A DNA stretch of 62,908 nt, filler included, from Reclinomonas americana ATCC 50394 (GCA_048213135.1; 16 parts of 16 records of this genome joined end to end with filler, not necessarily neighbours in it), one strand, 5' to 3'; positions 4,059 through 60,700 are shown, counted from the whole stretch's first letter. Translations and numbers: made by a program. Notes: generated from the sequence alone by a model not told the origin.

Positions 4059-5029
4059 TCAGCGAATGTGCTGCAGAATGGCACCCGTGTCGAACTTGAA
4101 TGTCAGCGACGCCGACTTGGGCGGGGTCGCCGACAGGGCACAGATCGACGGAGCCACCACACCAATGCTGATGGGCGCACTGGGTGCGGTGGGCGCCACC
4201 GACTTGACCGTCGGTGTTGTCATTGTTGTCGCCGGAGCCGTGGCGGGCTTGCCCGACAGCAGCGCGTTGAAGAACGACTCGCCAGTGTACGACACAAAGC
4301 CAGCACGATGCTGGTGATGCTGATCCGGCGACGACTCCACGCTGCTGCGCACAATCGAGCCAACAGAGTCCACACTGCTCGGTGATCCACTGCGTCCGCT
4401 GCCGTCACTGGCCGTGCTGCTGCTGCTGCTGCGGTGGCCAGGAGACATCTCCAAATCGTCCAGCGGCTGACGCTCGTAGACACAGAGGTCGCCGACCGAC
4501 TCGGGCATATCGGTCAGCTTGATCTGCGCACGGGCACGAGACTTGGCCGCGCGCGGACGCGGGGCCGCAGCACCCGTGGCGGCGGCGGCGGTGGTGGAGC
4601 CCGATCCCTTGGCCACAGTCACAGCTGCAGTCGGTGACGGTGTCGATGCAATGGTGCTACCGCGCTGCAACACACGGACTGGGGTCTGCGGGTTGAAGGT
4701 GGTGGCGGCGGCGGGAGTGGTCGGAGTGGCAGGAGCAGCGGTGGCGGTCGGTGAGGCCGACTGCGCCGCCGACTTGGCGGTGCGACTCTTGTTGCGACGA
4801 CCACCGCGAGCTCCGCGGGCACTGAAGCCCGGAGACGCGGGCGCAGCCTGGGTGGCAAACGTGGCGCCATGCGTCACAATCCACTCATGCAGAGGTCTGC
4901 AATTTTTTCGCGCCCGCCAACACATACAACAGTCAGCCCACCATTGTTTTCCATACTTCTCCCCCACAAAACCACACCCACCGAGCAAACGGAATCGACT
5001 TGGCCGTCAGAGAAATCTCCTCCTCGCCA
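4059..5029 (-). CDS. Hypothetical S/T/A/P-rich protein, 3' part (5' end lost in gap)
   Basis: Long open exon ending ...FKFDTGAILQHIR* at 4059. An upstream exon (...SIPFAR) splices in frame to PLHEWIVTHG through a GT-AG intron. No recognisable domain. Confidence 0.5.
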
Positions 5030-5129
5030 NNNNNNNNNNNNNNNNNNNNNNNNNNNNNNNNNNNNNNNNNNNNTTAATTAATTAANNNNNNNNNNNNNNN
5101 NNNNNNNNNNNNNNNNNNNNNNNNNNNNN
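5030..5129. other. Artificial scaffold-gap linker N44-TTAATTAATTAA-N44 (first of 15)
   Basis: Identical 100-nt spacers also at 12785, 21769, 28138, 31657, 34245, 35456, 36597, 38250, 39359, 44839, 53402, 54553, 59701 and 61409. Genes continue in the correct order across them (NDUFAF7, MetRS, KAP3, P4-ATPase), so they are placeholders for gaps of unknown size. Confidence 0.97.
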
Positions 5130-5145
5130 GAAGTGGACCGACCGA

Positions 5146-8100
5146 ATGGAGTGCACTACGGAAACGGACAACGTTTCCACTCACGCTGTCACCATGAGTG
5201 ATGACACAAGGTGCGTCTTCTCTCTGTGTGTGTGTGCTTGTGTGCGTACGTGCTCATGGTGGCGGTGGTGGCGGTGGGAGCACAGACCATCGGGGCTGGA
5301 GAATGCCCTGCGACGAGACTCGGCGGCGAGTCTCTCCAGCCCCGGATCCATGTCGTCGTCGCCACTCATTCAACGCGCATCACCGCCCGCTCGTGTGGAC
5401 GATGAGAGTTGCGCACACGTGTGTGTGCACACATCGCCCCATTCGCTTTTGCTCACGTCGAATTCACTGGCAGCGGCCTCGCACCAGACGGTGAGCTCAT
5501 TCGAGAAGGCGCAGCAGACGGAGATCAGCACGGCCAAGGCGAATCGGCGAGCTCGTGGTGGCGGCAGTCGTGTTCCACGTTGCGCTCACTCCCACTCCTG
5601 CTCCTCCCTTTTCCCCCCACTTGACCAAACACACAAATGCGCAGAACCCGCCGTCAAACCCGTTCTCTTTCCGCGCCGTCTCGAGGACCTCGGCAAGGTG
5701 GAGGTCGAGGAAGCCGTGGAAGGTGCGCTTCCTGCGCTCCCTCCTCACCCTCACCCTCCACAACCCTTCTCATTCTGTCACCAGTCACCAAGTCGCCGAA
5801 AGAGGGCGAGCAGGAGGCTGCCGATCTCGCCGCACGCATCAAGCTCGTGCGCGACATCCGGCGCGATATTATCCGCCGCTGGTCCATCGCCTTTGGCATC
5901 CTGATCTTTGTGGCACTTGTCGTGTTCGTGCTGTGCATTGTGATCTCGGCCGGTCGTGCCGTGCCATCGACCAGCGGCAAGCTGGTGTTGCGACCGATCG
6001 AAACCCTCGTCACTTCCATCACCAACTTTGTCACCTTCCTGCCGGGCGAAGTCTTCTTTCCGCGCGACGAATTCGAGTACATTTACGTCAACTACACCGC
6101 CTACGTCGGGCGCCACCTGGTGATCGGTGAGTCGCCGTTCACCGGCAACTGGAACATTCTGCGCACGCTGGCGGTGAGCGACACGTCGCGAATCGGCGCT
6201 GCCGACATGGACAATGGTCTCCTGCGGGTGAACGGCCAGCTGCAGACGTTGCGCTCTTTGTTGCATCTGTGACCCATGCGCCACACCTGCTCTCACTTGC
6301 TATCAGCGATGCAATCATCCTGGGCAACTTTCGCGTGTCGACTGGCTCCGGTTCCACCTTTCGGTTGGAGCGCAACACGGCCGCAGCCTTCAACGTCAAG
6401 AACGGTGGAGCGAACATTGAGGTGGGGCCGGGGTCCACCAACGTTGGCTTTGGCAGCACGGAGGCCGGCGCGTTGACCACCTTCAAGGGTGCGACCACCT
6501 TTGACAACTCCATCAACTTTGACGGCATTCGCATCTCGCCCACCGGCATTGCACGCTTCACCGACAGTCTCACACCCGCTGTCAACTCCACGCTGACACT
6601 CGATTCGGGTGCTCCCATGGGATCGCGTGTGCTCATGCAGGGCGGTGAACGCGGCATTCGTGTCGGCACAAAACCGTCGCAGTATGTGACCGCAGGTGAG
6701 TGCCGTGGTGGGCGATCGCGGGAGCCAGAGTTCATGAAGAGTTGCTTACCCCCCACGTCTGCTCGCAGTCGGTCCACTGCAGATCGAGGGCACCTCGCTC
6801 ACACTCGGTCTCCCGAACGCCAATCACCTCATTTACGGCGCTCCACGCGCCACTGGTGCCGGTCTGCCGTGGGTGTTCTCCGGACAGAGTGCACTCGGTG
6901 CGGGCCAGAACGGCGGCGATCTCTTTATCGACGGCGGCAGTGGATCCGCGCCTGCCAACAGCGGCGGTGTGTCTATCGGCAGCTCGGTGCCGTCGGCCGT
7001 GCACATTGGCCGTCCGGCACCAACACCCACCATTGCGCCGACCATCACTCCCACAGCCGGCATGGGCACCACGCAGCTGACGGTGGCCTCCAGCAGTATC
7101 TCCACGTCGGCCATCCTGAGCATCGACGGCGACACAACCGCGGGCTGGAGCACGCTGCGACCGCGCACCGTGACGCAGGCGGCCACTGGCGTGCCGAACA
7201 CGGCCATGGGCGCCGACCAGCTCGGCGACATGCGTCTCTCGTGCCAGGGTGGTTTCTCACTCGATGGTGGCACCGGTGCCGCCACCACCATGGCGGCCCC
7301 ACTGGCTGGTCGTGGCACCGTGTTTGTGGGCACACAGACTCCACAAGTGCAGGTCGGCTCATCGTCGCGAACCGACACCACCACCAACTTCAACGGCTCA
7401 CAAATCAACATTGGCGACATGGCCAGTCAGCTCAATGTGGGCGGCAGGCAGTTCTCGGCCACCACCACCGCCAACATTTCGTTCACCGGCAGCAATCTCA
7501 CGTTTACGCCGAGCAGTGCCATGAATCTGGCAGTGGGCGCCCTCCGTCTGCAGGGTGGCATGACGGTGACGCTGGGCGGCCAGTCTGTCTATCTGTACGG
7601 CCAGACGCTGAGCGTAGCCACGGGCTTCCCACTGACGCCCTCGTCGACTGGAGCGCTCACCCTCAGCGGCAAGGACGTGGCCGCCACGGCCTCCACCAGC
7701 ATGACACTCACGGCGCCGCTGGTGCAAGCCACGGCCACGCAGAGTGTCACCAACACGTCCACCACGGTCACCATGACGTCGCCAGTGAAGGTGCAAGTGG
7801 GGTCCACTTCGGCACCTCTCACGGTGACGTCGGCTGCGGCCATGAATCTGCAACCGCGCACTCTCAGCTTTGCCAATACCGGCAATACCACCCTAAAGGT
7901 ATATTTTGCATTTTTCATTGGTGCTTCTCTTCCCCTCCAACCCCTCACATACACGTGCCGCAGACCGCTGGCCCGCTGTCGCTGACGGCCAGCACCGGAG
8001 CACTTTCCATGTCCACCAATCAGCAGCTGACAGTGACGGTGGCGGCGGCCACCACCATCAGCGCCAGCACGCAGCTGAACATGAATGCCAATACCGTGTT

Positions 8101-11010
8101 CCTGCTGGCCACCAACATCAACACGCCGCTGCCGGCCACGTACCCGTCGTTGCAGCAGGCGCTGACTGCGTACGTGCCGCAGCGCATCACGGGCAACACA
8201 CTGGCGCGTGTCTCCGGCACGCAGAGTCTCACCGCCACCTCCACCAGTGACTTGTTCTTCGACTCGGCCGGCACACTGACGGCATCGGCACCCTCCGGCA
8301 CGCTACGATACACAGCCACGAGGTCGCTATCGTTTGGCGCCATGCCGAATACTCCGGGAAACTCCACCACGCGCCTCAGCACCGTCACACTCACGTCGCC
8401 CGCCACCAGCATGTCGGCCACCACCACCACCGTTTCGCTGACGAGCCCGGTGATCAATGTCACCGGACCGACCATTACGCTGGGTGTGGATCCGGCCGCC
8501 AGTGGCGTGTCGTCGGACTCGATCCTGCTGCGCGGCGACACGCAGTTGACCATCACGGCCGCGACGCAACTGGCGCAAGCCATTGCCGTGGTCATCAACA
8601 GTCCGTCCATCACCGTGCGTGGAACGACGCTGGCGTCGCTGGCCGCCACCGCCACCAGCATTCAGATCACTGCGCCGGCTAGTGCATGGACTGCTGGACG
8701 CACCATCCAGCAGACGAGCAGCAGCAGTGCCGTCCTCTTCCGCTCCACCGCCGGCTCCGTCTCCATCAGCAGCGTGACGGTGACGGGCTCAAGCACCACC
8801 GGCAATGGCGTTTTCACCGGTGGCTCCGGCGGCGCCTCGCTGACATCCACCACCGGCCCCGTAACGCTGACCGCCGGCAATGCCAGCGTGTCGACAGGTA
8901 CCGGTGGCCAACTGAGCATCACGGCCCCGGTCAGCGTGACCACGAATGCACAAGACATGACGTTCACCGCCAGCCCGCTGACCACCGACCTTGTCAACTT
9001 TCCCAACAATGTCGTCGTGTCGGGCACCGGCGGCGTCAGCCTGGTCGGAAGCGTCGCCGGCACGCACCAGGCCAGTGTCGACTGGCTGGTGGACGCACTG
9101 ACTCGTGTCACGGCGCAGGGTGCGACGGGTCTCACGGCATCGACTGGTCGCACGTTGAATGTGTGCGCCACGCAGCTGCAGACGCAGTCGTCTTCCGTGT
9201 CGGCACTCACGCTCTCCTCCACGGCAAGTTCCATTACGGTGACGGGCACCAACTTTATCGCTGCTGCGTCGAGTGGCACCACCGGCACTGTTACCGTGCA
9301 GCAGACCGGTGGAGTGCCGGCCTCCAGCACCATGACCATCACCACTGCCGGCTCGGTGCTGATGCCGCCCACCACCGATCCACGCACCTCGCCTCCGTTT
9401 GCCCTGCCGACGTCGGTGACCTGGACAGCCACGGCGCCGACAATCTCCATTGTTGGCACCACGCTCAATCTGCAAGGACGATTGTGGCGAGTCAACGGTG
9501 TGTTGCAGCTACTGATGCAGCCGTCGCCGTCGGCCAGCGGCTTTCGACTCGGATTGCGCGGCATTGTTGGCGTTGCTGGCAGCGCGTCGCTCAGCGTTCT
9601 CGGACCGGGCGACGTGGGCATCGAGGCCGGCGTCGGCACAACAATGACACCGACCGCGGTGCAAGCCGGCAACATTTCACTCGGACCCAGTGCACGCATC
9701 CTCACGCTGGCCAACCGCACGGGGTACGTATGCTACTCTAGCTTGCTGGTGATGCATAGGATTGCTGGTGGCTCACCGCGTGTCTCACAGAGCGGGAATC
9801 AGCATCTCGGGCACATTTGTGCCGTCGTCCGTAATTGAACTCGGTGAAGGTGGCATCACCTCGCCGTCAGCCACACGTCGCCTGATTGGACCCAGCACCG
9901 GCGATCTGCGCATTCGTGCGCAGCAGACAACCACCGGAACCACCGGCGGCAATCTGCGTCTGCTAGGTGGCACCACCTCGGATGCCACTGGCTTTACAGG
10001 TTTGAGTCGCCACTGCGTGTGGCTGCATTGCCGTCTTACTTGGCCTGACTGCTGCACGCACAGGATCAATCTTCATCGGCAACGCCTCCTCTGTGGTGGT
10101 TCTCGGCCGAGCAACCACCGGCTCGGTGGTACAGATGCAATCGACCAGTATCAATGTGTTGTTGAGTTCGGCCGGCGCGTTCACCATCACTCGTCCGCTG
10201 CCGTCGTCCACGAATGGTCCCACCACCGCCACCACTTTCAGTGGACAAGCAAACAGTCTTGGTGCGTGTCGTAGGATGACCATCGCGAGCGCGCGTCTCT
10301 TTCTTTCTCTTTCTCACTCACTCGGCATCTTGCAGGAAACGGCGGCGATATCACTGTTCGCAGTCGTTCGACACTCACCGTGTCCAGTGGCACCACCGGC
10401 GGCGCAATTCAGCTGCTGGCCGGCGTGTCGTCGGCCAACACCGAAAGCACCAATGGCCATGTGGTGATTGGCAGCACGGCGACCACCACTGCCACGCTCA
10501 CCGGCAGTGCAGTGAGCACCGGAGGTTCGCGTCAGTAACGCAAAAATAACCTTCTTCACACACTTCGCCCACTCACGTCGCCACAACTGCGCAGGGCGAC
10601 TGGTGATTGCGGGCTACACCACCATGCAGGATGCAATTGCTTCTATATGGTTCCCAGCCAATGGCCTGCGCGTCGTCAAGTACACCTACACTGTAACATC
10701 GTCGTTCCTCACCGGGCAAGCCAATCTGGTGTCGTTCCCGCACGGCAGTCCCGGTGGCGTGCCGGTCGGCGCACCCGTCAACACCTTTACGCCCAACGTG
10801 CAGCCGCTATGGTTCGAGCGATTCACATGGGGCTACTACAACCCCAGCACCGACACCTACATCAGCGGCAACAATACGGGCGCCTTTGTCGTGGTCGGCA
10901 CCACCAACAATATTCTCATCACCCGCATGTCGACCACGGATCGCGGCGTCTCCACCGACGGCGTCATCATCAAGATCATAGTGTGGTACCAGAAGACGCC
11001 ATTCGGCTAA
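5146..11010 (+). CDS. Large (~1,700 aa) type II single-pass membrane protein with a T/S/G/A/V-rich fibre-like ectodomain and a C-terminal globular domain
   Basis: About 11 exons join in frame through GT-AG introns (donors e.g. 5579, 6248, ~6695, ~7899, ~9724, ~10000, ~10262, ~10525). One TM helix WSIAFGILIFVALVVFVLCIVISAG (~5880-5954) follows a basic stretch. Stop TAA at 11008-11010. The true start may lie in the gap upstream. Confidence 0.75.
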
Positions 11011-11083
11011 TCAAAACGATTGTAAAATAACGAAAACCATAATGTGTTATCAAAACAGTTCTTGTCTTTCTCTTCAATTTCGT

Positions 11084-14000
11084 TCACACACTGCCGGTGG
11101 CGCGCAACCTTGACGGTGGGCCCTGGTCACGCTTCAGCGCATCATCGGAGGAGTGGAAGCGCTCCGAGCTGCTGCCGTTGCTGCTGGCGTACGAGCCCTT
11201 GGGCGACGGCGGCGGAATCACGCCCTTGCCGAGCAGCGATGCGATGCTCGCATTCGACGAAGTGAAATGCGACAGCCGGTGGTAAAGTTCGTCATCCTAC
11301 GCACGCACATACACACATGCACACACACACACACACACACGCACACACGCGACACAACACACACCACGCCACAAGAAATCGGCGGCGAGGCGCGCAGCAG
11401 GAGCAACAGGAGGAGAAAGAGAAAAAGAACGGGGGACAAGCGACACAAACAGAGCAAACAATGCAAACACAACACACACACACAAAAACAAACAACACAC
11501 ACATTATCAAACAGAGCGATATCTTCGTAGGGGGGATGTGTACGCGGGTGACGCGGAGTGGGTGCAGTAGTAGCTCTACACCACGCCGTCGCCAAGACGT
11601 TGACACGCACACACACAATTATGATCAAGTAAAGACAATTGGGAAAAATAGAGTTTAGAGTGGGAGGGATTAGGTGGGGAAAGAGGAGGGGAGTGAGAGG
11701 GAGAAGGAAAAGGTCGACTACAGCACAGCACTCGGCGCAGCCCGCGGTGGCGGGCTGACCAGTGCAGGCTCCGTCGACCTGTAGGAAGGATGCCCATGGG
11801 AATTGATAATCAGACTGCTGCGAGAGCTCGGCTGCCAGACGGACGCACATGGAACCATGCAAACACACCACACGACACGACACGACACGACACACACACA
11901 ACACAAATACAGCAAAAAACAACGATCGATCATTATTACGGTAAACGGGTGTGTGACTGTGGCTCACTGAGCAAGCGAGAGCAAGACAGAGAGAAATAGC
12001 AAGCAAGAGAACAAGAGAGTGTTCGACTACCCCCCACAGATGCCACAGTGTACAATGCGTGTGCACACCACCACTCACCTCTGACTCGCCGAGTTTTCGC
12101 TTAAACTTTTGCGCCTCCAGGAACGCTTCCTGCGCCACCATGGCATCCGTCGGCCAGAATCGCCGCCGCAAACTGCATCACAGGTGAGACAAGCCGCCAA
12201 GACGATCACGGGTGAGCATCATACAGAGCGACGCACTATTTGAGGGCAAAGTCGGGTGCGAGGCAGGCCACCGTGAGCAACAGCAGCAAGAGCCAGAACT
12301 GGAGACAGGAGGCCAGATACACTGCAGGAGTGTGGGTGAGTAAGGGTGACATCACGAGGCACTGACAGTCATCAGATAGAAAAAAACTCACCAAGAATCC
12401 AATACATGTTGGACTGGCCAAAGATCGTCGGAATCAACGAGTACAACGTGACAATAATGTAGTAGCAGATCAACGATCCCCACAGGAAGAAATGATTCAG
12501 CCACACCCAGCATCTTGGCAGCAGGAAGAAACCAAATGAGTTGAAACACGACACGTATCGCACCAATTCGAGCAGTCGCGCGTACCTTGTCTCCAGCGCG
12601 CACTTGAGCAGCGCCACTGTAATGACAATCGAGCAATTGGCGGTGCCCTTGGCGAACAGACCCGATGTACGTGCGCTGTCCACGAGGCTATCGGATTCCA
12701 CGACCAGAATCATTCCAAAGTAAATGACTGCAGCAGCGAGTATTGCCGAGTGAGCACAGAGAGACAGACGTAAGGGGGAGAAAGNNNNNNNNNNNNNNNN
12801 NNNNNNNNNNNNNNNNNNNNNNNNNNNNTTAATTAATTAANNNNNNNNNNNNNNNNNNNNNNNNNNNNNNNNNNNNNNNNNNNNAGAGGGAGAGGGAGAG
12901 GGAGAGGGAGAGGGAGAGGGAGAGGGAGAGAGAGAGAAGGGGAAGGAGGAGGAGGAGATAGAGGAAGTGGAGAGTGAGGAGCGGGGAAAGGAGAAGGAGG
13001 AGGAGGAGGAGGAGAAGGAGAGGGAAAGGAGAGGTAAAAAAGAGGGAGAGGGAGAGGGAGAAGGAGAAGAAGGAGATAGAGGAAGTGGAGAGTGAGGAGG
13101 AGCGGGGAAAGGAGAAGGAGGGGAAGAAGGAGAGGAAGGAGAGTAGACAAAAGGAGGACAAGGGCAAAAAGAAGAACACGAAGAAGAAGAAGAAGAGGAA
13201 TGAGAAGGGCAGGGGGAGAGGGGCAACGAGTAGAGGAGGGCAAGGAGGCGGAGAAGAACGAGAAGGAGAAGGACAAGAAGAAACGGAAAGAGAAGAAAAG
13301 GTGCAAGGAGACGGAGAAATAGTAAATGAACGCGAACAAAATGAAGAAGAACAGGAGGAACAAGGAAGAGGAGGAGGAACTAAGCCCACAGACATGCACC
13401 CCCACACACTCGCTCGCTCCATCCACCCACGCACCCATCCAGATTGGCTGTCTGCACATACGCCGTGCCCTCCTCGCCAGCCGACGACGACAACAGAATA
13501 AGATCGGCCGGCACAAAATCGCCCTTCTCCACACACACGATATCGCCGACACGAATATGCATGGTCTTGATGTGCGACCAGCGGCCGTCGCGTAGCACAT
13601 TAAAGCACGCCGAATTCGCCTTGCGATCGCTCTTGTACCTCGCCCAATCCTCCACCGCATCCTTGATCGCCGTCACCAACACAATAAACACCAGCGGCGT
13701 CACGGCGGCCGCCGGCAACAGCGGCGAAATGGACGGAATTTGCGCGATAATCATCGAGATGAGAAAGTAAAAGTTGGAGACGCGTCGGAACTGCTCGAGC
13801 AAATTCAGCGGCACAAACGTCAGCAGCGTGTACCGCGTCGTCCGCATGTAATTGTCAGGATAGCCCTTGGCAAGGTTCGCCTCCGAGTTGTTCAACTCGA
13901 CAACGTAGTCTGTGTGTGGATGTGAGCGCGTATGTGTGAATGCAAACAGAGATGGTCGACATGGCGCGCGCACCGGGCATGACCTCGCCACCGGCGTCGT

Positions 14001-14615
14001 CTCTGTCGGCGGCCGACTCATGCGCTGCAATGCTTCCACCCGCTGCGCCTGCCGCCTCATGCACCGAGCTTGCAGTCTCAAACGGCTTATGCGCCGCTGA
14101 ATCCGCGCGCTGCTCCGACGCCAGTCGCTCACGCTGTCGGCGAATCGACAGGCGCCGCTGATACTCTGAGCGCACCTCATCGTCCTCCTCTGCCGGGTCA
14201 TCCACGCTCGCTGCGCCTCCATGCCACGAGCGTCTATCGGGCGGCGGTCTGCGCAGAGGCGGGCCAACGCGGCTGCTGGCAAACGAGGCGCCCTCCAGGT
14301 CGTGCTCCGTGGCGTCGTCGTCCATGAGCACGCGCGTGGCCGACGACGACGGCGCAGTGGCCGAGGCTGCGCGTGCGGCGGCGGCTGTCCCCGAGGAGTT
14401 GGCGGCGGGTTGGACGCGGTACGCGGGCTCCAGCCGCGTGCTGCGCCTTGAGCCTGTTCCACCTCCGCCGCCGCCACTCGCGCTGCTGGCTGTGTTGTTG
14501 TGTTGCGCGAGACTGTCGCCATCTAACAGCTACACATGGAGATGATGATGATGAGTTCATGAGTGCGAGAAGAAGGGCACGCGCGCGTGTGTGCAACTCT
14601 GCGCTGATCGGCCAT
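11084..14615 (-). CDS. P4-type ATPase (phospholipid flippase); central N/P domains missing in the gap at 12785
   Basis: N-terminal motifs [62 protein letters not shown] and YVQTANLDG. After the gap come the C-terminal TM exons (WVWLNHFFLWGS, FWLLLLLLTVACLAPDFALK). Start codon is tentative. Confidence 0.9.
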
Positions 14616-42604: not shown

Positions 42605-42642
42605 GACTTCGGTTGTCCTGCCACTCACTCTTCACCAACGAA

Positions 42643-44690
42643 ATGCTGCGCGCATGTCGACGTCTGCTCAGCAGCAGTGGCCCGCACATCGACCGCTTCA
42701 AGCTGCCGCCCGCCTCGCCGGGACAACGTCGCCCACTGACACAAAAAAACGAACTGACGCGCGAGCTGCAGACGCGCATTCGCACGCGCGGCCCGCTGTC
42801 CATTGCCGAGTTCATGTCCGAGTGCCTGACGAATCCGCGACACGGGTACTACATGCGTCGCGATGTATTTGGTACCGGCGGCGATTTCATTACGGCGCCG
42901 GAGATCAGTCAGGTGTTTGGCGAGTGCGTCGGCGTGTGGTGCGCACTGGTCGCCGAGCAGCTGCAGGACGCGCCGCGAGTGCATCTGGTGGAGATTGGTC
43001 CGGGCCGGGGAACGCTCATGAGCGATGTTATGAAGACGCTGGCGCAGGTGGTGTCTCGCGATCGCCAGCAGCAGGTGGAGGTGCATTTGGTGGAGGCCAG
43101 TCCGGCGCTGCGTCGCATGCAGTATGAGAAGCTTTGTGGCGGTTTGGGAGGCAAGGCGGAAGAGGTGGAGTTTAACCGGGCGTATCCGTCGCGGTTTCGA
43201 GGTGGCGAGTGGAGTGTGTCGTGGTTGCGGGCGTTGTCGGAGCTGCCGGCGGGGGAGGAGCCGGTGATTGTGCTGGCGCAGGAGCTATTTGATGCGCTGC
43301 CGGTGTATCAGTTTGAGTATCGTGAGGGGCGCGGGTGGTGCGAGTTGCTGGTGGATGTCGATGAGTCGGCGGAGGGGTGAGTGACCTTGCTTTTCTCTTT
43401 GTTTGCGGGTGGTGGCTCACTTTGCCGGTGTGGGGCAGTGCGCATGACTTTCGATTGGTGTTGAGTAAGCGGCCGACGTTGGCGTCGATGGCGTTTGCGG
43501 GGAGGTGGGGGGAGGGGGAGGAGGGGGGAAGGAGGAGGAGGCCGGTGGAGGGGGAGAGGATTGAGGTGAGTGAGAGGGGGAAGGGAGGGTAAGGGGGAAG
43601 GGTGGGGAAGGGGGAAGGGTGGGGAAGGGGGAGGAGGGGGAGGGGGAGGAGGAGGAGGAGGAGGAGGAAGAGGAGGAGGAGGAAAAGAAGAAGAAGAGAG
43701 AGTGAGAGTAGACTGAAGAAACAAAAAGAAAGAGGTGGAGGAGAAGGAGAAGAAGGACGAATGCGGAGGAGAAGGAGGAGGAAGAAGAGGAAGAGGGAGA
43801 AAGAGACGGGAGGAGGAGAAGAAAAAAGAAGAAGAAGAAGAAAAAGCGGAGGAGGAGTTGGTGGAAGAGAAAAAAGAAGGTGGAGGGAGGATGAGAATTC
43901 TATTCTTCAGTTCAAAGAATGCATGAGGGTGTCAGTGTCTCTTTCCAAAGAGGCAGAAAAATGGAGTGTTAGAGAGAGTGAGCGGGAGAGGAGAGGAGCG
44001 AGGGGAAGAGCAGAGGCGAGAAAAAGAAAAACAATATCAAGGAGGAGACGAAGGAGAGTCAGAAAATCTGGCAGTGGAGAATAGGATAGTGTGCTGCAGT
44101 TGTGGTGCCAGTGTTGGTGTGTAGAAAGAGAGAGTGAGAGATGAAATGGTGGGTTGGAGAGGTGAGGACGGAGAGGTTGAGCAGGGCAAGTGGGAGGCGG
44201 GATGAAGAAGGATGAGATCAAGGATACGAAGCAGAAGGGGAGGAGGAAGAGGAAGAGGAGAATAAGAAGAGGGTGGCAGGAGGATAGGAATAATGGCAGT
44301 TGAAGGAAGGCAAGAGGGTGTCTCTGTGCGAGAAAGCAGAGAAATGGAGTGTGTGTGTGAGAGAGAGGAGAGGAGAGAAGCAAGAGGTAGAACAGAGGGA
44401 GAAAGACAAACAATAACAAGAAGGAGGAGACAAAGGAGAATCAGCAGTGGAAGAGAATCAGTGTTCTGTAGGTGTCAGTGCCAGAGTGCAAAGAACGAGA
44501 GGCTGAGAGAGAAAATGGTGGGCTGAGCAGAAGAAGTAGAAGGCGGGAAGAAAAGAAGAAGAACAGGAACAAGAAGCAGAAGGAGGACGAAGAGAAAGAG
44601 GAGAATGAGAAGACTGTGGAGGGAATATGAGCGAAAGCAAGTGGGTGTCAGTGTCTGTGCAAGAATACCTGAGAAAATGATGTGAAGAGC

Positions 44691-44724
<34 letters not shown>

Positions 44725-45018
44725 GAGGAGAGAGAGAGAGAGAGAGCAGAGAGGAGGAGAGAAGAGGAGGAAGAAGAGAGAGAGTGAGAGAGTAGAGTGT
44801 GTGCGAGTAGGTGGAGGTCGACCGTAAGTAACGAAGGTNNNNNNNNNNNNNNNNNNNNNNNNNNNNNNNNNNNNNNNNNNNNTTAATTAATTAANNNNNN
44901 NNNNNNNNNNNNNNNNNNNNNNNNNNNNNNNNNNNNNNTAGTAGTAGTAGTAGTAGAGGTAGTAGAGAGTAGAGTAGGTAGTAGTAGAGTAGTAGGTAGT
45001 AGGTAGTAAGTAGTAGAG

Positions 45019-45078
<60 letters not shown>

Positions 45079-45870
45079 GAGGAAGAGGAGAGGAGAAGAA
45101 GACAAGCAGACGGAAGGAGGAGAATCAGGAGGAGGGAAAACAGAAGAGAGCGTGAGGATAGGATAGTGTGCGGCAGTTGAGGTGCCAGTACAAGAGTGTG
45201 GAACGAGAAAATGACGGGAGTGCCGGTGGAGGGCGAATAATCACGCAAGTGAGAGTTCGCAGACGACGATAAAGGCAGAGAGAGCGAGGGTGGTGGAATT
45301 GTTGGGGAGCGAAAGGCCAGAAAGGGGAAGGCTTCTTCCTTGTCTCCACTCGCATACTTATCGTGCCCTCAGGTATCCCCTGCCAGCACACTGCTGGCGC
45401 AGAGCATCGCCCAGCACCTGCGGAAACGACGCGGCGCCTGTCTGATTGTCGACTATGGTGACGACAAGGCGATGCCGTGGACGCTGCAGGCGATTCGGCA
45501 GCACCAGTTTGTGGAGCTGTTGGAGTCGCCGGGCGAGTGCGATCTGAGCGTGTACGTCGACTTTGCGGCGTTGCGGACCGCCGTGCAGAGCATGCCGGCG
45601 ATCGCGACGAGCACAGATGGTGCGCACGCGGTTACGGTGCACGGACCGCTCACGCAGCAGGCGTTTCTGTGTGGCTGTGGGCTGGAGCCGCGACTGGAGG
45701 CGCTGGTCGAGTCGGTGGTGGGTGCCGGAGAAGGGGAGGCCAAGGCGGAGGAGTTGGTGGATGCTTGTGTGCGGCTGATTGATCCGGAGCAGATGGGTGT
45801 GAGGTACAAGGCGATGGCGTTGACGGCGGGGATTGCTAGTTGTCCTGTGTTTGGGGTGAGGGGGGAGTGA
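42643..45870 (+). CDS. NDUFAF7: Complex I assembly arginine methyltransferase NDUFAF7 (MidA), spanning a gap
   Basis: GPLSIAEFMSECLTNPRHGYY..FGTGGDFITAPEISQVFGE, VEIGPGRGTLM, AQELFDALP, LIVDYG, PGECDLSVYVDF and RLIDPEQMG. Confidence 0.95.
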
Positions 45871-46182: not shown

Positions 46183-49100
46183 ATGTCGGTGAGTTGTATT
46201 GATTGTGGGGGACGCTTGTTGTTCGCATTCTTCCCTTCTTCTCTCTGTCTCATCTCTTGTCGCTCACTGGCCTCGATTATCGCAGTATACTGTGCGTGTG
46301 ATCGCTTCGCACAGTCCATCGCTGTCTGTGGAGGTGGAAGGAATGACGGCAACGACGACTCTTGCAGACTTGCTGCTCGAGGCCACACGCTTGCTGCGTG
46401 AGAAGAGTGGAGATGAGGAGATGGATATTGTGGGGGTGGAGAAGCCAGTGGAGTACGACTTGGAGGATGCGAGTGTGCTGAAGCTGAAATCTCTGGGAAT
46501 CAAACCGAACACAGAGATTGTTGTCAGCCTGACGACAATCGCAGCTCCGCTGGGGAGGTGCGTGCGTGCGTGTGTGTGTGATAGAGAGAGAGAGAGAGAG
46601 CACGTGTGTGTGCGGTTTGTTGACTGTTGTGCGTCTACGTAGGAAGCGCCCCGCAGAGGGTTCTGCGCGTGACGCGCCGCCACTCAAGCGACAAAATACG
46701 CTCGCACATGTGAGTTGCGCCAGTGACGAGCCGGCACCGGCAACAGCAATGGAAGAGGACGGCGACACCCCAGCGTCGATCACCGGCAGTGCAGCCGCAC
46801 CGAGCGGGGATTCTTCATCGTCGGAGGTGGTACGTGGCGCAGTCGTCATTGATTTTATACTCGTTCTTGTTGCTCGACCTGCGTGAGTATCCATGTCCCG
46901 CCTTCTTTGTTAATTCGCTGAGCAAGCTTTCTTTGTGTGGCAGTTGCTTGTCTTGCAGCTGTGCTGTTGCTCACTTGTGTGCTCTCGCACACAGTTTTCT
47001 GTGGAGGTCAGCACTGATGTTGCACCCGTTGGTCATACCATATCCGTTCGCGTCAATGGACTACGCTCGACCAGCACCGTCGGCGACTTGCTCGACCGTG
47101 CCCTGGTGGCTTTGCGGAGCGTGACGCGCTGTGACCAGCTGGAAATCATCGAGTTCGTGTCACCGCAGAAGCTCCCACTGGGGAAAAAGAAGCGAACATC
47201 CACTTGTCAAATGCCTCTCGCAGACGCGGGGATTGTTGCAAACACGACGGTGAAGGTGGCGGTCAAAGGGTTCGTGTGCACACGTTTTCGCAGTAATGCG
47301 TCTGTGTTTTTACCTCTCTGACGTCGCGAGTAGTGTCGCTGCAGAGTCGCCATCTCCGCCGCCTTCGGAGCCGATGCTAGCAGAACCGGAGGGAGAGGCA
47401 TCAGGATCTAGACTGTCTGCGGAGCGGCGGTCAGTTTTCTATCTTGCCCTATCAGCGTGTCACCGCACTGACACCCGACTGCAGGGTTATCAATTACAAC
47501 CGCATGTACGCAGCCTGTGAGGTGGTGGAGGAGGCCGTGCGTCTTCGCTGTCAACGCGCTCTGGCGCAGTTCAGCCGCGATCATCCAGCCTTTGATGTGC
47601 GGGCGTGGGTACCGAGTTTCACGCCTGCTGGCATGGATGCGGCTGCTGTAGAGGTGTGGCGTGCACGGCATGCTCCACTCCACCCTTCTCGAGTCAAGTT
47701 GTTTGAGGAAAAACGCCGGGCGATGCTGAAATGGCGGCGCGCTTTCGACGCGGACCCCTCATCTGACCCTTCTTGTGACGGATTCGACACGACGGCTCTG
47801 CACACCATCATGCTGTATGGTGGCTTTGTTTACGATGACGGTCGCAAGCTGCTGCTGATTGACAATGCTGACGAGCGGAAGGCTGTGGAGGAGCTGAATG
47901 ACGTGAGGAAGGGGTTGGCACACAAGGACCTCGTGCTGATAGACACCATTGTGCAGCGGTATCTCGGTGACGGTGGCGCCTTGCCGTCCATTCTCTCTCG
48001 CCTGCTGTTGATGGCTGATGAAATTCCAGAGTTTACTCGCCGTATTTGTGAGGCCCGCCTCGTGGACATTCGTATCGATACATTTCATTTGCGGCTTCAA
48101 CGACTGGCGGCACGTGAGGTGGCCTGCTATCACGAGGATGAGAATGTGCACAAGGACATGCAGATGTATGTGCCACTGCTGTGCTCTCGTGAGCGTGACG
48201 TCTTGACGAGTGACAAGTTGATGGATCTATTGACGGAGGTGGATGCTTTCCTCGTCGACACCAACACCACTCAGCGTGTACTGGTGTTGTTTGGTAACAG
48301 TGGTGCCGGCAAGACCACCACCATTTCGGTGCTGGCCGAACGAGCATGGCGGCAGTGGCAGAAGAACACGAGCAGACGAGTGCCTGTGCGTGTGCCTCTT
48401 GGTGCTCTGCGCAATGCCGACGAGCGACTGTTGGAGGAGGCACTGGAGCGACTGTCGCCCGAGTTGGGATTGGAGGCGGACGTGCGACGGTTGAAGGATG
48501 AACCGCTGCTGCTTTTGCTTGACGGGTACGATGAGCTGTATCGTGGTGTGAATCTGTTTCTTAAGAACCAGCTGGATTCGTCTGTGTGCCGTGATTTGAA
48601 AGTGATTATCACCTGTCGAGGCGATTACGCACTAACGGCACTGGGTGGTGTGACGCAGTATCGACGGTATTTTGCGCCGGTGGATGCACGAGGACAGTTG
48701 TGCATGCAGCAGCTGATGGAGCGACACATTGCACCGTTCACCAAGGAGCAGATTGAGGAGTACTTTGAGCGACTGGTGCGTGTGGGCTGTGGTGGTGATG
48801 ATGATGGCGAAGTGCGATGGTCAACTGCCGACGAGTACATTCGTGCACTGGAGAGTGTGCATGGACTGGATGCACTGGTGTCGAATCCGTTCCTGTTGGC
48901 AGTGGTGGCTCGTGTGCTGCCGGAGTTGGTGGCGAGTGGCGTGCAGCGACCGACTCGGTGTGATGTGTTTGACCGATTCATTCGACAGTGGATTGTGAGG
49001 GAGCAAGATCGACAGACAGTTCTCGGGGCTGAGCGTGTGCCGAGTGAGGAGACGTGTCTGGCATTCTGTGAGGGACTGGCACGGCTGATGTACGAACACA

Positions 49101-51754
49101 AGCTCACAAATATTGTGTGGTCAGAGCCACCTGCTGACGTGTCCGATAGAAGACGCTACGGTGCATATGTGGCTATGCGTCCCACGAATCCATTTGATGT
49201 ATTCCTGGGAAAAGATGATGAATGGGTGCGAGTGTGCTGCCCGATTGTGCGACTGTATGGGACGACGCAGTGGGGATTCGTGCATCTGTCGTTGCTGGAG
49301 CACTGTGTGGCACGGCATGTGTTTGCGTGGGAGACGTGGGATGAGGAGAGGAGACTGACGATAGAAGATATGCAGCAGCATGTGTTGGCAGTGCGATTGC
49401 TCAATGATCGACCATCGTTGGTGGAGCAGATAGCCGAGGTAGTGCGACGGTCTCCTGCATTGCAAGCGAGACTCTGGGAGGTGATTTATTTGTCACGGGA
49501 GGTGGATGAGGAGCGATTGGTGACGGCCGCCGCGAATGCAGCAACAGTGTTGTGTGTGGCTGAAGTGTCGTTCAGTGGGCGAGATCTGTCGGGTGTGCGA
49601 GTGAGGGGAGCGGATTTGAGGGATGCGGTGATGCACAGGACGGTGTGGAGGGGAGCGGACTTGCGTAGGGTGAATGTGTGCATGGCGTTTGCGAGGGAGG
49701 CGGACTTCCGAGAGGCGGATGTGACGGATGTGAAGTGGCCGAGGAAGCCTATGGAGGGTCACACTGGTGATGTGAGATCTGTTGCCGTCACTCCAGACGG
49801 TCAATTTGCTGTCAGCGGGAGTGATGACACGACTGTACGGGTGTGGTCACTGGCAAGTGAAGAAACACTGGTTCTATTGGAGGGGCACACTGAAAAGGTG
49901 TGGTCTGTTGCCGTCACTCCCGATGGCCAGCACGTTATAAGTGCGAGCGAAGACAAGACGGTGCGCGTATGGTCACTGCAGCTTGGAGAGGAAGTGCGAC
50001 GGTTGGAGGGACACACTCGAGAGGTGCGATCTGTCGCCGTTACTCCCGATGGCAAGCACATTGTGAGTGGGAGTGATGATGAGACTATTCGATTATGGTC
50101 ACTGACCAGCGGAGATGAAGTGCGACTGTATTTGGGACACACTCACTTTGTGTGGTCTGTCGCAGTCACTCCCAACGGTGAGCACATTGTGAGTGGAAGT
50201 TGGGACAGTACAGTACGAGTGTGGTCCCTGGTGAGTGGCGAAGAAGAGAGACGCCTGGAGGGACACGCTGACATGGTGCTGTCCGTTGCCGTTACTCCCG
50301 ACGGACAGCATGTGGTGAGTGGAAGCAGTGACGAGACAGTGCGAGTGTGGTCCCTGGCGAGTGGCGAAGAAGTGCGACAGCTGTATGGGCACGCTGACTG
50401 TGTGCAGTCCATCGCCACCACTCCTGATAATCAGTATGTCGTGAGTGGGAGTAGTGATGCGACAGTGCGCGTGTGGTCGCTGGCGAGTGGAGAAGTAGTG
50501 CGGCGACTGGAGAGGCACACTGATGTGGTGTTCGCCGTCGCCGTCACTCCCGATGGTCATCACATTCTAAGCGGTGGAGATACAACAGTACAAATTTTGT
50601 CCCTGACGAGCGGTGAAGAAGTGCGACGATTAGAGGGTCATTTCAAGTTGGTGCAGTGTGTTGCCATCACCCCTAACGGTCAGTGCGTTGCGAGCGGGAG
50701 CGAGGACGAGACAGTGCGAGTGTGGTCGCTGTCGAGTGGAGAGGAGATTCGACGACTGGCGGGACACAGTGGGTGGGTGCAGTCTGTTGCCATCACCCCC
50801 GATAGCCAGCGCATGCTGAGTGTTGACGATGATGGGACAGTGCGAGTGTTTAATTTGGCACATGGTGGAGAAGAAGGTCGATTTGCTTATGTAGTGTCAT
50901 CGGCCTCTGTCACGCCCGATGTTCAGCAAGTCGATGATGATGCGACAGTGCAGGTGTTGTTTAGAGTGAGTGGCGCTGGGATTCGGCCGTTTGACGAACG
51001 CACTGATGCAGTCAACTGTGTCGCCATCGCTCCCGACGGTCTGCATGTCGTGAGTGGAAATAATGACGGGACTGTGCGATTGTGGTTGCTGGCGAGTGGC
51101 GAGGAATTGCATCGCTCGGAGGGACTCGTTGATGGAGTGCGGTCTGTCGCTGTCGCTGCCAGTGGTCACCACGTTGTGAGTGGAGGTGGCGACAAAACAG
51201 TGCGAGTGTGGTCATTTGCGAGTGGGGAGGAATTGCTGCGGTTGGAGGGGCACACTGAAGCTGTAGAGTCAGTGGTCATGACGCCTGATGGTCAGCATGT
51301 TGTGAGTGGTGGCGAAGACATGACTGTGCGACTGTGGTCTGTCGCGAGTGGAGAACAAGTGCTGCAGTTTAATGGACATACTGAATCCGTCACCATAACT
51401 CCCGATGGTCACCACATCGTGAGTGGAGGTGTTGACACAATAATTCGAGTGTGGTCTTTGGCAAGTGGAGAGGAGATTCGACGACTGGAGGGACACACTG
51501 CTGAGGTGCACAGTGTCGTCGTCAGTGCTGATGGTCGGCATGTAGTGAGCGGGAGCTGGGACCATACAGTACGAGTATGGTCGCTGGCGAATGGAGAAGA
51601 AGTGCGTCACAGTGCAGAATCCGACCTTGGCGACGCATCTCAATCGTGCAGCGACACTGCCGAGCGAATTGCTCCTGGACCTGCACCGATGGGCAACTTG
51701 CTCGTGCGTGTAATCGGCTCCTTCCTACCCGATTTTGCTGGTGCTTTGTATTAG
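46183..51754 (+). CDS. NLR-like STAND protein: 2x ubiquitin-like - HEPN-like - NACHT - pentapeptide repeats - ~15 WD40
   Basis: Short 5' exons followed by one 4.27-kb exon (47485-51754). Walker A GNSGAGKT (48293), Walker B LLLLLDGYDE (~48506-48535), NPFLL and FVHLSLLEH (NACHT winged helix). Pentapeptide repeats at ~49570-49740; 42-aa GH...W WD40 units at ~49750-51600. Confidence 0.9.
49750..51600 (+). repeat. Coding tandem array of 126-bp WD40 units
   Basis: Recurrent nucleotide blocks such as GTCACTCCCGATGG..GTGAGTGG..GTGCGAGTGTGGTC at ~126-nt period. One unit (~50880-50990) is degenerate. Confidence 0.9.
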
Positions 51755-57742: not shown

Positions 57743-60700
57743 TCACGCGGGAAGCGGAGATCCACCATCGTCGCTAAATCGATCCTCGTCGTAGTTTTCG
57801 TAAATCGCCGGATTGATGAGGTCCGTGGCGGTGTAGTCGCCCACGTCCCACCGGTACGTCTCAAAGTCGGCCAGCGCATCCTGGTCCGACAGCGACTGCT
57901 GCAGCCCGTACGCCGAGGGCACCGAGTCGACAGGCGCCGCCGACATGCCGAGGCGAGAGGGAACTGTGTGGGGGGAGGAGAAGTGAGGAAAGTGAGGAAA
58001 GGGGGAAGGAGGAAGAGAGAAGGAGGAGGGGGGAAGGAGAGGGGGAATGATCAGGGGAAGGGAAGACGGGGAGGCAGAGAAGGGTGAAGGAGCAGTGGAA
58101 ACAGAAAGGGGGCAAGTGATTCTCCTCACTATTTCTTGTCACCTTCTCCCTCGCTTTCCTATGCCTTTTCGCTTCTCTCAGTCACCTTCACCATTCACCT
58201 CCTCTTGCGCATTCTCCTTCCACAGCTTCACCTTGTTGCGCTCCCTTCTTACCGATGCTCTCTATCCACCTCCATTTTCCTTCTTCTTTGTTCATTGTCT
58301 CCCATCTTCCTCATTTCTCTTCCACGTTACCAATTGCCGTGGCCCTGCCTCGCCCGGTCTCGCTCCTGTTTTTTTCCTTTCTCTATTCTGTTCACCGTAC
58401 CCGATTTTCTCTCAACAGTCTTCACTCTGACCTCTCTTCCTCGTCTTCAAACCCAATTCCTGCCTCACATTGTTCCTCTTCGTTATTATCCTATTCTCTC
58501 TTCTTTCTTCTTCTCCCATTGCCTCTCTTCCCTCCTTCTCTCTCGTTTATCTGCCCATATCCCTGTTCGCCTTCCCCCTCTCTCCACCTTGAGTCTCGCC
58601 TCTCATCGCCCACTTCTGTCCTCCTCTTCCCTTACTCCCTTTCCTCCACACCCTGTTTCTTCATTCTCCCCCTCACCCTTAAGTCGCTCCATCTGCCCCT
58701 TCCCCTCTCTTTCCCGTCCCCACTCCCCCCTTCTCCCATTTCTCCTTCCCCTCTACCCGCCTTCTCCCTCAGCCTTCCCCCTTTTCACGCACCTCCATAC
58801 GACGCCCCACTCCCACCCATCTCCGCCGCCACCGCCTTCAAATACTCCTGGTTGTACAGCTCGAATTTGCGCTGGCGAATCTGCGGGAAGTACGTCGCGT
58901 CGTACTCCTTGACCAGATCGAGCGTGACATCCGCCATGCGTCGAATCTGATCGTTCGGATCGGTCAGCATGTCGATCATGTACGGCACCACGTCCGTGTT
59001 CTCCAGCAGCACTCGGCGTGTCCGCTCCTGCAGCATCAGCTTGTAGAATGTGTAGAATGTCTGCAAAATCATCTCGTCGTCGTTTTGCTTGGCTGTGGAG
59101 CGAGGGAAGTGAGAGGAAAGAGTGAAATAAGGAAGGACGGTGAAAACACGAACCAATGACAGTGTCACACAGATTGCGAATGAGCTCCGACTCGGCAATC
59201 ATCGGGCACACGTCCGGGTCGGTGGCGAACGTGCCAATGAGGATAATGACCTCCAGCAGAATGTCATCCTCCACGTGCGGATCCTGCATTGCAAAAGAGA
59301 ATGGTGAGACAGGAAAGAAAAGAAGACGGAGAGAGAGTCTGTGAGAAGAGAGAGAGAGTCTGTGAGAAGAGAGAGTCAGTGCGTAAGAATTCCGGAGGGG
59401 AGAGAGAGAGCGCGCGCGAGAAAAAGAGAGAGCGAGAGAGAGATAGAGAGAAAGACAAAATTTAACGAGTTGTGCTTGGGAAGAGAGCGTGCGGACAAAG
59501 CCTTTCACTTGGTGTGCTGGCAATTGGTAAAGAAACCAACATGGTTAGGTGCGAGTGGGAAAGAACACGAATCAGCCATCTTCTACGGATACAGACGACA
59601 AAGACATCACACCTGCTGGTGGTGGTGGGAAAGGTCGAGGCTGCTGTTCGTGGGCACTTGTTTTTTCTCGGTCCTCTCTCTCTCTCTCTCTCTCTCTCGT
59701 NNNNNNNNNNNNNNNNNNNNNNNNNNNNNNNNNNNNNNNNNNNNTTAATTAATTAANNNNNNNNNNNNNNNNNNNNNNNNNNNNNNNNNNNNNNNNNNNN
59801 CCCTTTCCCTCTCCCACCCTCCCTCTCCCCTCCCCCACCAACGCACCTCCATCAGGCTGGTGAGGAACTGCAGCAGCGCATATCGCTCGACTAGGATCGA
59901 GAAGTGGAACTGCTCGATAGTGAGGTTTCCTAGTGTGCCGAGCACCTCCACCAGCAAATCGCCACGCTCCGCGGTCACCGCCAACTTGGCCAGGCCCTCC
60001 ACGTAGTCCTGTGTGCACGGGCGATGAGTAGACGGACAAAGAGAAGAGAAGGAGGGAGAAGGGCAGAGAGCAAAACATACCCTGAACAGCGGCTTGATGT
60101 CCTCGTGTGAGGCAATGTTGCGGATGAGCTTCATCATCAGCGGATCGCCAGTCTGCGCCATCAAACAGATACGAAATGAGAATACTGAGAGAGTGCACAC
60201 ACACACGCGCGCATACACGCACTCCAACTTATTCACTCACACACACACACACACGCGCATACACGCACTCCCACACGCACACACACACTCTTATTCACTC
60301 ACTCACAGGGCATCTGTCAACATGCATTTCTGCTCTCCCTCTCTTCTGCACACACACTCCCACTCACTCACTCCCTCACTTACTCGCTCAGCCACTCACA
60401 GTGCATCTGTCAACATGCACGTCTGCTGTCTCTATCTCTCTCTCTCTCTCTCGCAGAACAAACTAACGGGGCATCTGTCAACTTGCATTCCTGCCGTTTC
60501 TATCTCTTGCACTCTCTATCTCCTCCTCTTCCTCTTCCTCTCTCTTCTCCCTGTCCTTCCCCGTCTCCCCCTCCCCTTCCCCTTTATCTCCCACCACCCC
60601 CCTTCCCTCTTTATCCCCTTCCCCTTATAAACCTGCATGGTGCGGTCCATCAAGCGATGCAAATTGTCGTCGCCAACCATAATCTCCGCATTGTTGCGGT

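Follow-up and report, generated by a model that had tools for sequence, protein, structure and literature searches.

A candidate homotrimeric membrane fibre with a predicted triple beta-helix shaft in Reclinomonas americana

Triple-stranded beta-helices are the standard material of bacteriophage spikes and fibres, and, to our knowledge, occur in very few eukaryotic proteins, namely the sarcoglycan tower and the short stalk of MYRF. The subject of this study is a gene at positions 5146-11010 (plus strand) of a 62,908-nucleotide stretch of DNA from Reclinomonas americana ATCC 50394 (GCA_048213135.1), here called the window, in which 15 linkers, all consisting of 44 N, 12 bases and 44 N, connect 16 pieces. 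The gene is predicted to encode a protein of 1,700 residues, and the favoured explanation, held at a probability of about 0.55, is that three identical copies of this protein would assemble into a type II membrane fibre whose shaft is a triple beta-helix and which probably serves as a surface adhesin or receptor. A preliminary description of this DNA had already read the shaft as a trimeric beta-helix, a reading that is supported in silico by a three-copy structural model, by a hydrophobic periodicity of 7.75 residues, and by a type II topology.

The sarcoglycan tower is described as an extracellular trimeric beta-helix formed by three type II proteins within the dystrophin-glycoprotein complex (PMC12404760), and a survey that used alpha-sarcoglycan as its query reports the protein from cnidarians and bilaterians alone (PMC4582122). 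MYRF is presented as an animal membrane-bound transcription factor that trimerises via a phage-type triple beta-helix (PMC8326128, PMC3742443). A literature search of limited scope found no protist protein of this type described. By analogy, the sarcoglycan tower would be the closest cellular counterpart of the Reclinomonas protein, and the gp5, gpV and VgrG spikes, together with phage tail fibres, would be its closest structural counterparts.

Gene structure and layout of the encoded protein

Over the interval in question the reading frame changes precisely at short GT-AG intervals, as in a spliced gene. Removing 11 GT-AG introns of 59-87 nucleotides yields a single frame of 1,700 codons that runs from an ATG at 5146 to a stop codon at 11008-11010, in agreement with the earlier proposal of a gene with spliceosomal introns at this position. 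In a leave-one-out test, each of introns 4-11 was required, as omission of any one of them shifts the frame and, in seven of the eight cases, introduces internal stops as well. Introns 1-3 are not required by stops; their lengths are multiples of three and they are stop-free, and for this reason they are tentative, as is the start codon. Upstream of the ATG at 5146 the frame stays open to the start of the piece at 5130, which adjoins an N linker, and the true start may lie inside the gap upstream of 5130.

The gene structure was predicted from sequence, with introns chosen as short intervals that have the best donors and a CAG or YAG acceptor; numerous alternative GT-AG pairs likewise keep the frame open, and the exact junctions are therefore unproven. 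A CTSAY branch-like motif is present 11-19 nucleotides upstream of the AG in 8 of the 11 introns, and in 9 of the 12 exons GC at the third codon position (GC3) is higher in the frame adopted than in the other frames, the GC3 of the coding sequence being 0.76 and the GC of the introns 0.57. In the case of intron 5, which has the same unusual donor, GTTGCG, as intron 2, the choice is backed by a GC3 of 0.87 in the part of the exon that was kept versus 0.47 in the part removed, and a competing version of this intron, with its GTGAGT donor at 6127, was discarded on grounds of GC3. An unspliced start at the ATG at 5637 was likewise rejected, the GC3 of that frame being 0.31 over 5645-5722. The features of the locus, with exons and introns according to the spliced model, are as follows.

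5146..5210, plus: exon 1; tentative start at its first in-frame ATG
5211-5285, plus: intron 1, not required by stops
5286-5407, 5474-5557 and 5645-5722, plus: exons 2-4, hydrophilic Ser/Arg/Glu-rich cytosolic tail, tentative
5408-5473, plus: intron 2, not required by stops
5558-5644, plus: intron 3, not required by stops
5723-5784, plus: intron 4, required
5785..6247, plus: exon 5, covering the last part of the cytosolic tail, the transmembrane helix and the aromatic-rich juxtamembrane start of the ectodomain; GC3 0.82
5880..5948, plus: predicted transmembrane helix, residues 149-171, from hydropathy and flanking Lys and Arg
6248-6306, plus: intron 5, required; GC3 contrast
6307..6695, plus: exon 6, proximal ectodomain
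6696-6768, plus: intron 6, required; donor GTGAGT
6769..7898, plus: exon 7, shaft, including the trimer-modelled piece 6771-7760 (residues 402-731)
6912-6938, plus: motif GGDLFIDGG, in exon 7
7899-7963, plus: intron 7, required
7964..9723, plus: exon 8, 586-residue central shaft, periodic at residues 775-822, 919-1110 and 1207-1278
9724-9790, plus: intron 8, required
9791-9999, 10064-10261 and 10336-10524, plus: exons 9-11, distal shaft, with a periodic segment at residues 1375-1470
9945-9971, plus: motif GGNLRLLGG, distal shaft
10000-10063 and 10262-10335, plus: introns 9 and 10, required
10341-10364, plus: motif GGDITVRS, distal shaft
10398-10424, plus: motif GGAIQLLAG, distal shaft
10525-10594, plus: intron 11, required
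10595..11010, plus: exon 12, 137-residue C-terminal tip domain and stop codon at 11008-11010
10732-10746, plus: motif SFPHG, tip
10909-10923, plus: motif NILIT, tip
10969-10995, plus: motif IKIIVWYQK, tip

The encoded protein is laid out as a hydrophilic N-terminus of 148 residues, a transmembrane segment at residues 149-171, a shaft of 1,392 residues (172-1563), and a C-terminal part of 137 residues, here called the tip, which is encoded by a single exon and corresponds to the terminal domain of about 135 residues in the preliminary description; the seven motifs quoted there are all located in the translation. Residues 1-148 are rich in Ser, Ala, Arg and Glu and have no signal-like start. The sole hydrophobic segment has a 19-residue Kyte-Doolittle peak of 3.39 (the runner-up elsewhere is 1.42), and is preceded by seven Lys or Arg in 15 residues and followed by three in 15. 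Because the positive residues are more numerous on the N-terminal side of the helix, an N-in, type II orientation is predicted, and the cytosolic N-terminus and single transmembrane helix that had been suggested are borne out by the hydropathy and the charge bias.

The composition of the shaft is dominated by Thr (17.0 %), Ser (12.3 %), Gly (12.0 %) and Ala (10.5 %), which sum to 52 %, and is poor in Lys (0.5 %), Glu (1.0 %) and Cys (0.1 %), much as the preliminary description had it for an ectodomain of some 1,400 residues. Only two cysteines are found in the whole of the shaft and none in the tip, where Phe, Tyr and Trp together make up 13.8 % of residues versus 4.2 % in the shaft. No internal repeats were found in the ectodomain by self-BLAST at E values up to 10.

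Periodicity and three-copy modelling of the shaft

The patterning of large hydrophobic residues along the shaft was assessed by a locally averaged power spectrum compared with block shuffles. The spectrum peaks at 7.75 residues with a z-score (z) of 7.2-7.4, where the top z among 300 block shuffles is 4.86, and the patterning is also significant at period 2; the regular pattern of short beta-strands noted earlier is thus beyond chance by this test. Taken individually, 16 of 63 intervals of 48 residues were at or below 10 of 200 shuffles, and these significant intervals group into residues 631-822, 919-1110, 1207-1278 and 1375-1470.

Proteins of known architecture were put through the same script. 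The triple beta-helix of T4 gp5 (residues 389-575) gave a period of 8.0 residues with z 8.7, ten other T4 protein segments gave z of at most 2.6 in the 7-8.75 band, and fibritin gave the 3.5 residues expected of a coiled coil. With the P22 tailspike, whose beta-helix is formed by a single chain, there was no peak, the z of 2.1-2.7 lying under the 95th percentile of its shuffles. In Smith-Waterman comparisons with the shaft, the observed score was reached by 0 of 200 shuffles for P2 gpV, by 4 of 200 for T4 gp12, and by 7 of 200 for T4 gp5C. For the P22 tailspike it was reached by 44 of 200, with no similarity above composition, and for the controls T4 gp23 and T4 gp18 by 163 and 125 of 200, respectively.

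Trimer modelling, which the preliminary description had put forward as a check, was carried out with ESMFold2 on one segment of the shaft, using three copies of residues 402-731 (330 of the 1,392 shaft residues), no alignment, and three controls. The three copies reached interaction prediction scores from aligned errors (ipSAE) of 0.75, 0.76 and 0.75, versus 0.00 for the best of the three controls. In calibration, 21 of 30 microbial proteins with structures solved as same-chain pairs attained the ipSAE pass mark and none of 23 solved as single chains did; for eukaryotes, 17 of 29 same-chain pairs and none of 30 single chains attained it. The runs share at least 95 % of their contacts, and the predicted local distance difference test (pLDDT) of the partners is at least 73.

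The model has about 2,300 inter-chain residue contacts for a chain of 330 residues, and the interface is confident over residues 431-470, 555-565 and 584-730. Within it, the runs are gapless, as for instance at residues 227-284 of the piece (58 consecutive residues). Such unbroken runs imply that every face contacts the other chains, as in an intertwined helix, whereas side-by-side packing leaves faces free. In addition, replacing the third copy drops the two remaining copies to pLDDT 45, compared with 73 in the trimer. The inter-chain pairs of lowest error match residue i with position i-7 or i-8 in the next chain; in a C3-symmetric three-start beta-helix the rungs of a face alternate between chains, and the inter-chain offset should therefore equal the intrachain repeat, for which the 7.75-residue periodicity of the sequence is an independent signal. 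Taken as a model, the number of contacts, the gapless runs and the fall in pLDDT argue for an intertwined helix over three side-by-side rods. The periodic segment at residues 631-822 matches the confident interface at 584-730, and the non-periodic residues 463-582 match the part of the model outside the confident interface, so that the shaft looks segmented.

If the favoured explanation is correct, three N-terminal tails of about 148 residues would stay cytosolic and three transmembrane helices would root the molecule in the membrane. The three 1,392-residue ectodomains would coil together about a shared three-fold axis into a three-start (triple-stranded) beta-helix, with one strand-plus-turn unit of 7-8 residues to each face, and the helical segments would be broken by the non-periodic stretches, possibly bulges or hinges. 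At the far end, the three aromatic-rich C-terminal domains of 137 residues would gather as a ligand-binding head. The spacing of beta-strands, 4.8 Å, is established geometry. At 4.8 Å per 7.75-residue unit, the 552 residues of the four periodic segments would extend about 35 nm, and the whole shaft up to about 85 nm. Such a rigid fibre may stand on the cell or flagellar surface and act as an adhesin or receptor, with a role in adhesion or in contact with prey or substrate.

Several points weigh against this picture of a trimeric fibre. For the model, the trimer covers only 330 of the 1,392 shaft residues and comes from one engine run without an alignment, and the pass mark was calibrated on two copies, not three. 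The pass may reflect a habit of the language model of drawing Thr/Ser-rich, beta-rich sequence as phage-like trimers, and may also stem from a fold-level memory of solved spikes or complexes. For the periodicity, about half of the shaft intervals show no significant periodicity, and neither a whole-length Fourier transform of the shaft nor plain autocorrelation gave a significant period, only the locally averaged spectrum doing so. P2 gpV, a short triple beta-helix, gave no peak in the periodicity test, which therefore misses short helices. For the gene, the 5' end is uncertain, and no homologue was found in any of the searches described below, so that conservation and covariation lend no support to a functional protein; such family matches as were found are all far below significance. 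Finally, the tip gave no usable fold model, and a role for it in binding is something that we purely infer.

Relatives, alternative architectures and the question of viral origin

The searches for relatives covered families, structures, proteins, metagenomes and viruses. Pfam-A hmmscan with eight exon pieces at E values up to 1 gave no match, including to the sarcoglycan profile PF04790, Peptidase_S74, and the beta-helix, haemagglutinin and Pmp families. NCBIfam, with eight pieces, gave a single match, that of exon 7 to Francisella VgrG (T6SS_TssI_Fran) at E 0.018, the score being 15 bits where the cut-off is 100, and PHROG gave no significant family match. Sequence searches of the PDB gave 0, 4 and 0 matches, the four being unrelated enzymes and an antibody at E of at least 0.087. 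For the 586-residue exon 8, phmmer against 1.84 billion representative proteins found 0 matches at E up to 0.001. In word-index searches, none of 406 candidates for the tip among longer proteins, 10 for the tip among proteins of near length, and 1,446 for exon 5 among longer proteins scored, and in metagenome scans none of 180 pattern matches for the tip and 240 for exon 5 was confirmed. The tip, exon 7 and exon 8 gave no tblastn match at E up to 1 among 50,697 phage records, and in scans of IMG/VR with the same three, none of the 8, 1 and 8 pattern matches was confirmed as a relative, as was also the case for 103 and 84 pattern matches in scans of GTDB genomes. No paralogue was found within the window.

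Homology searches are weak on Thr/Ser-rich, low-complexity sequence, and pattern scans detect close relatives only; the protein is therefore an orphan in the sense that it has no detectable relative. Thus, where the preliminary description had looked to the taxonomic spread of homologues, none was detected in protein, metagenome, viral, phage or GTDB searches. The closest named language-model cluster is DUF2345/Sarcoglycan_1 at 0.83, a weak lead; Sarcoglycan_1 is found on 18 % of its members. The Smith-Waterman, VgrG and language-model leads are each insignificant alone and do not demonstrate homology; they show that the pattern of the shaft matches that of trimeric beta-helical spikes. The likeness to gp5/VgrG spikes and sarcoglycans that had been drawn earlier is accordingly fair as a description of fold class, and fails as a statement of family membership, for which no significant Pfam, PHROG, NCBIfam or PDB match was obtained.

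The alternative that survives best, although it is unlikely, is a single-chain beta-solenoid surface protein of the FHA, autotransporter passenger or Pmp type, present as a monomer or as a side-by-side trimer as in tailspikes. The GGxLxLxGG-type motifs and the short strands rich in Thr, Ser and Gly recall such adhesins, and a face unit of 7-8 residues would also suit a triangular solenoid with about 23 residues per turn. Three of the results given above run counter to it, namely the lack of a Pfam beta-helix, haemagglutinin or Pmp match at E up to 1, the absence of a 7-8 periodicity from the P22 tailspike control, and the continuous runs of the interface, which is not confined to every third face. 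The chains of the model also depend on one another, with pLDDT 45 in the controls versus 73 in the three-copy model, and an AlphaFold2 (AF2) single-sequence monomer of exon 8 had an unusable pLDDT of 37.8, a weak point in that it comes from another engine and another segment.

A mucin-like stalk, heavily O-glycosylated and largely disordered, that holds the C-terminal domain off the membrane is improbable. It would account for the 29 % of Thr plus Ser in the shaft, the 14 N-x-S/T sites in the extracellular part (residues 174-1700), the low confidence of the AF2 monomers, and the failure to find internal repeats or homologues. Pro, on the other hand, makes up only 5 % of the shaft, and neither the significant hydrophobic patterning at periods 2 and 7.75 nor the confidence of the three-copy model fits a disordered chain.

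A separate question, which concerns origin only and is compatible with a trimeric fibre, is whether the fibre, or at least its tip, is viral (phage or giant virus) by origin and was then domesticated, a scenario that is again improbable. The overall architecture recalls a tail fibre, and the language-model neighbours of the tip are hypothetical clusters dominated by Uroviricota (tailed phages) at 0.95 and clusters of the gp53-like_C/H-lectin type at 0.87-0.89, at a recognition value of 1898, which is below 2300 and counts as weak evidence on the scale of the tool. Residues 74-129 of the tip match phrog_34046, a family with unannotated function, weakly at E 0.0032. No Pfam family (including PF21882 and PF09458), PDB entry or homologue was matched by the tip. 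An AF2 single-sequence model of it is all beta-strand with an unusable pLDDT of 34.5, at which the 0 matches at E up to 0.001 from Foldseek against BFVD and PDB are meaningless. The suggestion of a phage fibre tip therefore finds no support beyond the language-model neighbours and the one PHROG match, and the suggestion of viral origin is likewise not supported beyond weak leads; the searches of PHROG, phage records, IMG/VR and GTDB returned no viral, phage or prokaryotic relative. In addition, eight spliceosomal introns are required, and the GC3 of the gene (0.76) compares with 0.62-0.77 in those open reading frames (ORFs) of the window that had been kept for a GC3 of at least 0.62. Given these short GT-AG introns and a GC3 within the range of the kept ORFs, the gene appears to be a resident nuclear gene of the host.

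The least likely of the alternatives, and a very doubtful one, is that the protein is one subunit of a heterotrimer of paralogues, like beta-, gamma- and delta-sarcoglycan, in favour of which the only cellular type II proteins known to build such a tower are described as heterotrimeric (PMC12404760). Against it, no paralogue was found in the window and the homotrimer model passes alone.

The window and the comparison with described systems

The fibre gene is located on the piece at 5130-12784. Linkers are found at 5030-5129, at 12785-12884 and at 13 other places; the 12 bases of the first are TTAATTAATTAA, with a stop in all six frames, and the others are spaced alike. A P4-type phospholipid flippase on the minus strand is split by the linker at 12785-12884, with its N-terminal domains at 13383-14522 (PhoLip_ATPase_N, E 3.1e-24, with E1-E2_ATPase) and its C-terminal domain at 12375-12782 (PhoLip_ATPase_C, E 5.5e-11). 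As the large middle part of the flippase is absent, this linker hides at least a few kilobases, and, with the two halves on either side of it, the pieces of the window appear to be ordered and oriented. An NDUFAF7-like methyltransferase (Methyltransf_28) is similarly present in two parts, at 42607-43377 (plus strand) and 45253-45867 (plus strand), flanking the linker at 44839-44938.

The other ORFs of the window encode ordinary eukaryotic proteins, among them a sodium:solute symporter (several ORFs), a Ras-like GTPase, G-patch and PRP38-associated domains, ribosomal protein S9/S16, methionyl-tRNA synthetase, a NACHT-WD40 protein, and the kinesin-associated protein KAP, of which a fragment is found at 58788-59198 (minus strand, E 1.4e-20). 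By its place in intraflagellar transport, KAP indicates an organism that bears cilia or flagella. The NACHT-WD40 gene, at 47381-51754 (plus strand), is an unbroken frame of 1,457 codons for a STAND-type protein in which a NACHT NTPase (E 4.1e-10) precedes some 14 WD40 repeats, with a weak pentapeptide-repeat match between them, and is intronless amid intron-rich surroundings. On the piece adjoining that of the fibre gene, a frame of 315 codons at 4062-5006 (minus strand), rich in Ser, Thr, Ala and Pro, has a GC3 of 0.70, matches no Pfam family, and may represent a further gene for a low-complexity protein; tblastn found no relation between it and the fibre protein.

Between genes, low-complexity tracts that are (CA)n/(TG)n-like or skewed in purines and pyrimidines are found, for instance at 11290-11520, with an AT skew of up to 0.5. 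These tracts are strongly strand-asymmetric and translate to His-Thr or Cys-Val repeats, giving rise to long spurious ORFs. Over 43000-45000 the strand skew is extreme, with a GC skew of 0.6-0.7. Rfam gave zero matches over the whole window.

It is doubtful that the protein represents the first case of a cellular homotrimeric fibre that is built as a triple beta-helix and anchored in a eukaryotic membrane, 35-85 nm long with a receptor-binding head, and with it a novel type of appendage on the surface or flagella of protists, whether related to the sarcoglycan tower from before the animals or a domesticated viral fibre. Supported in silico only, the fibre would be a variant of a known fold class. 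If the favoured reading of a homotrimeric membrane fibre is true, cells too would build long rigid fibres from the triple beta-helix, the protein would be a molecular candidate for the surface hairs or adhesive filaments of protists, and it would provide an outgroup for tracing the origin of the sarcoglycan fold.

With beta-, gamma- and delta-sarcoglycan, the predicted fibre shares a type II, single-pass, N-in topology, a predicted trimeric beta-helix ectodomain and a separate C-terminal end domain. The sarcoglycans, however, form a heterotrimer of short paralogues in an animal complex, whereas the shaft here has 1,392 residues and is modelled as a homotrimer, and PF04790 (Sarcoglycan_1) is unmatched by the eight exon pieces at E up to 1. 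Sarcoglycans also assemble with alpha-sarcoglycan and sarcospan, and they terminate in a C-terminal cluster of cysteines, unlike the cysteine-free tip. MYRF is likewise a eukaryotic single-pass membrane protein with a triple beta-helix, but its helix is a short stalk beside a self-cleaving intramolecular chaperone (ICA) domain, whereas the shaft here is about 1,400 residues long and no Peptidase_S74 domain (PF13884) is matched.

In the case of the T4 gp5, P2 gpV and VgrG spikes, the likeness would lie in an intertwined homotrimer whose strand unit measures about 8 residues (8.0 with z 8.7 for gp5C, 7.75 with z 7.4 for the shaft), in the gpV alignment score that none of the 200 shuffles reached, and in the weak VgrG match at E 0.018 in NCBIfam. 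The spikes of contractile systems are, however, soluble, have helices of about 100-190 residues on OB-fold or hub domains, and are made by phages and bacteria, whereas the fibre would be membrane-rooted, several times longer, segmented, and capped by a C-terminal head. It has no significant match to the gp5, gpV and VgrG profiles (PF06715, PF10106, NF041249), and its N-terminus is a hydrophilic tail and a transmembrane helix with no Pfam domain, in place of the hub or OB-fold domains by which spikes dock to the tail tube.

Phage tail fibres, such as T4 gp12, P2 gpH and those with gp53-like_C/H-lectin tips, would resemble the candidate fibre in their long, segmented, trimeric shaft and beta-rich end domain of about 140 residues, and the viral language-model neighbours of the tip and the gp12 alignment score (4 of 200 shuffles) are weak leads towards them. 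They differ in that the 50,697 phage records gave no match, a transmembrane helix here replaces the baseplate adaptor, and the gene contains spliceosomal introns. Single-chain beta-helix proteins (FHA, autotransporters, Pmp and P22 gp9) have in common with it Gly-Gly-x-hydrophobic motifs and short strands rich in Thr and Ser, but PF05594, PF13332, PF02415 and PF13229 are unmatched, and the P22 tailspike is without the 7-8 periodicity. Because the sequence test failed for each of these families, the protein is filed in none of them, and the candidate fibre would be set apart from all of them by being modelled as a homotrimer, by its length and segmentation, by its root in the membrane, and by its cysteine-free head.

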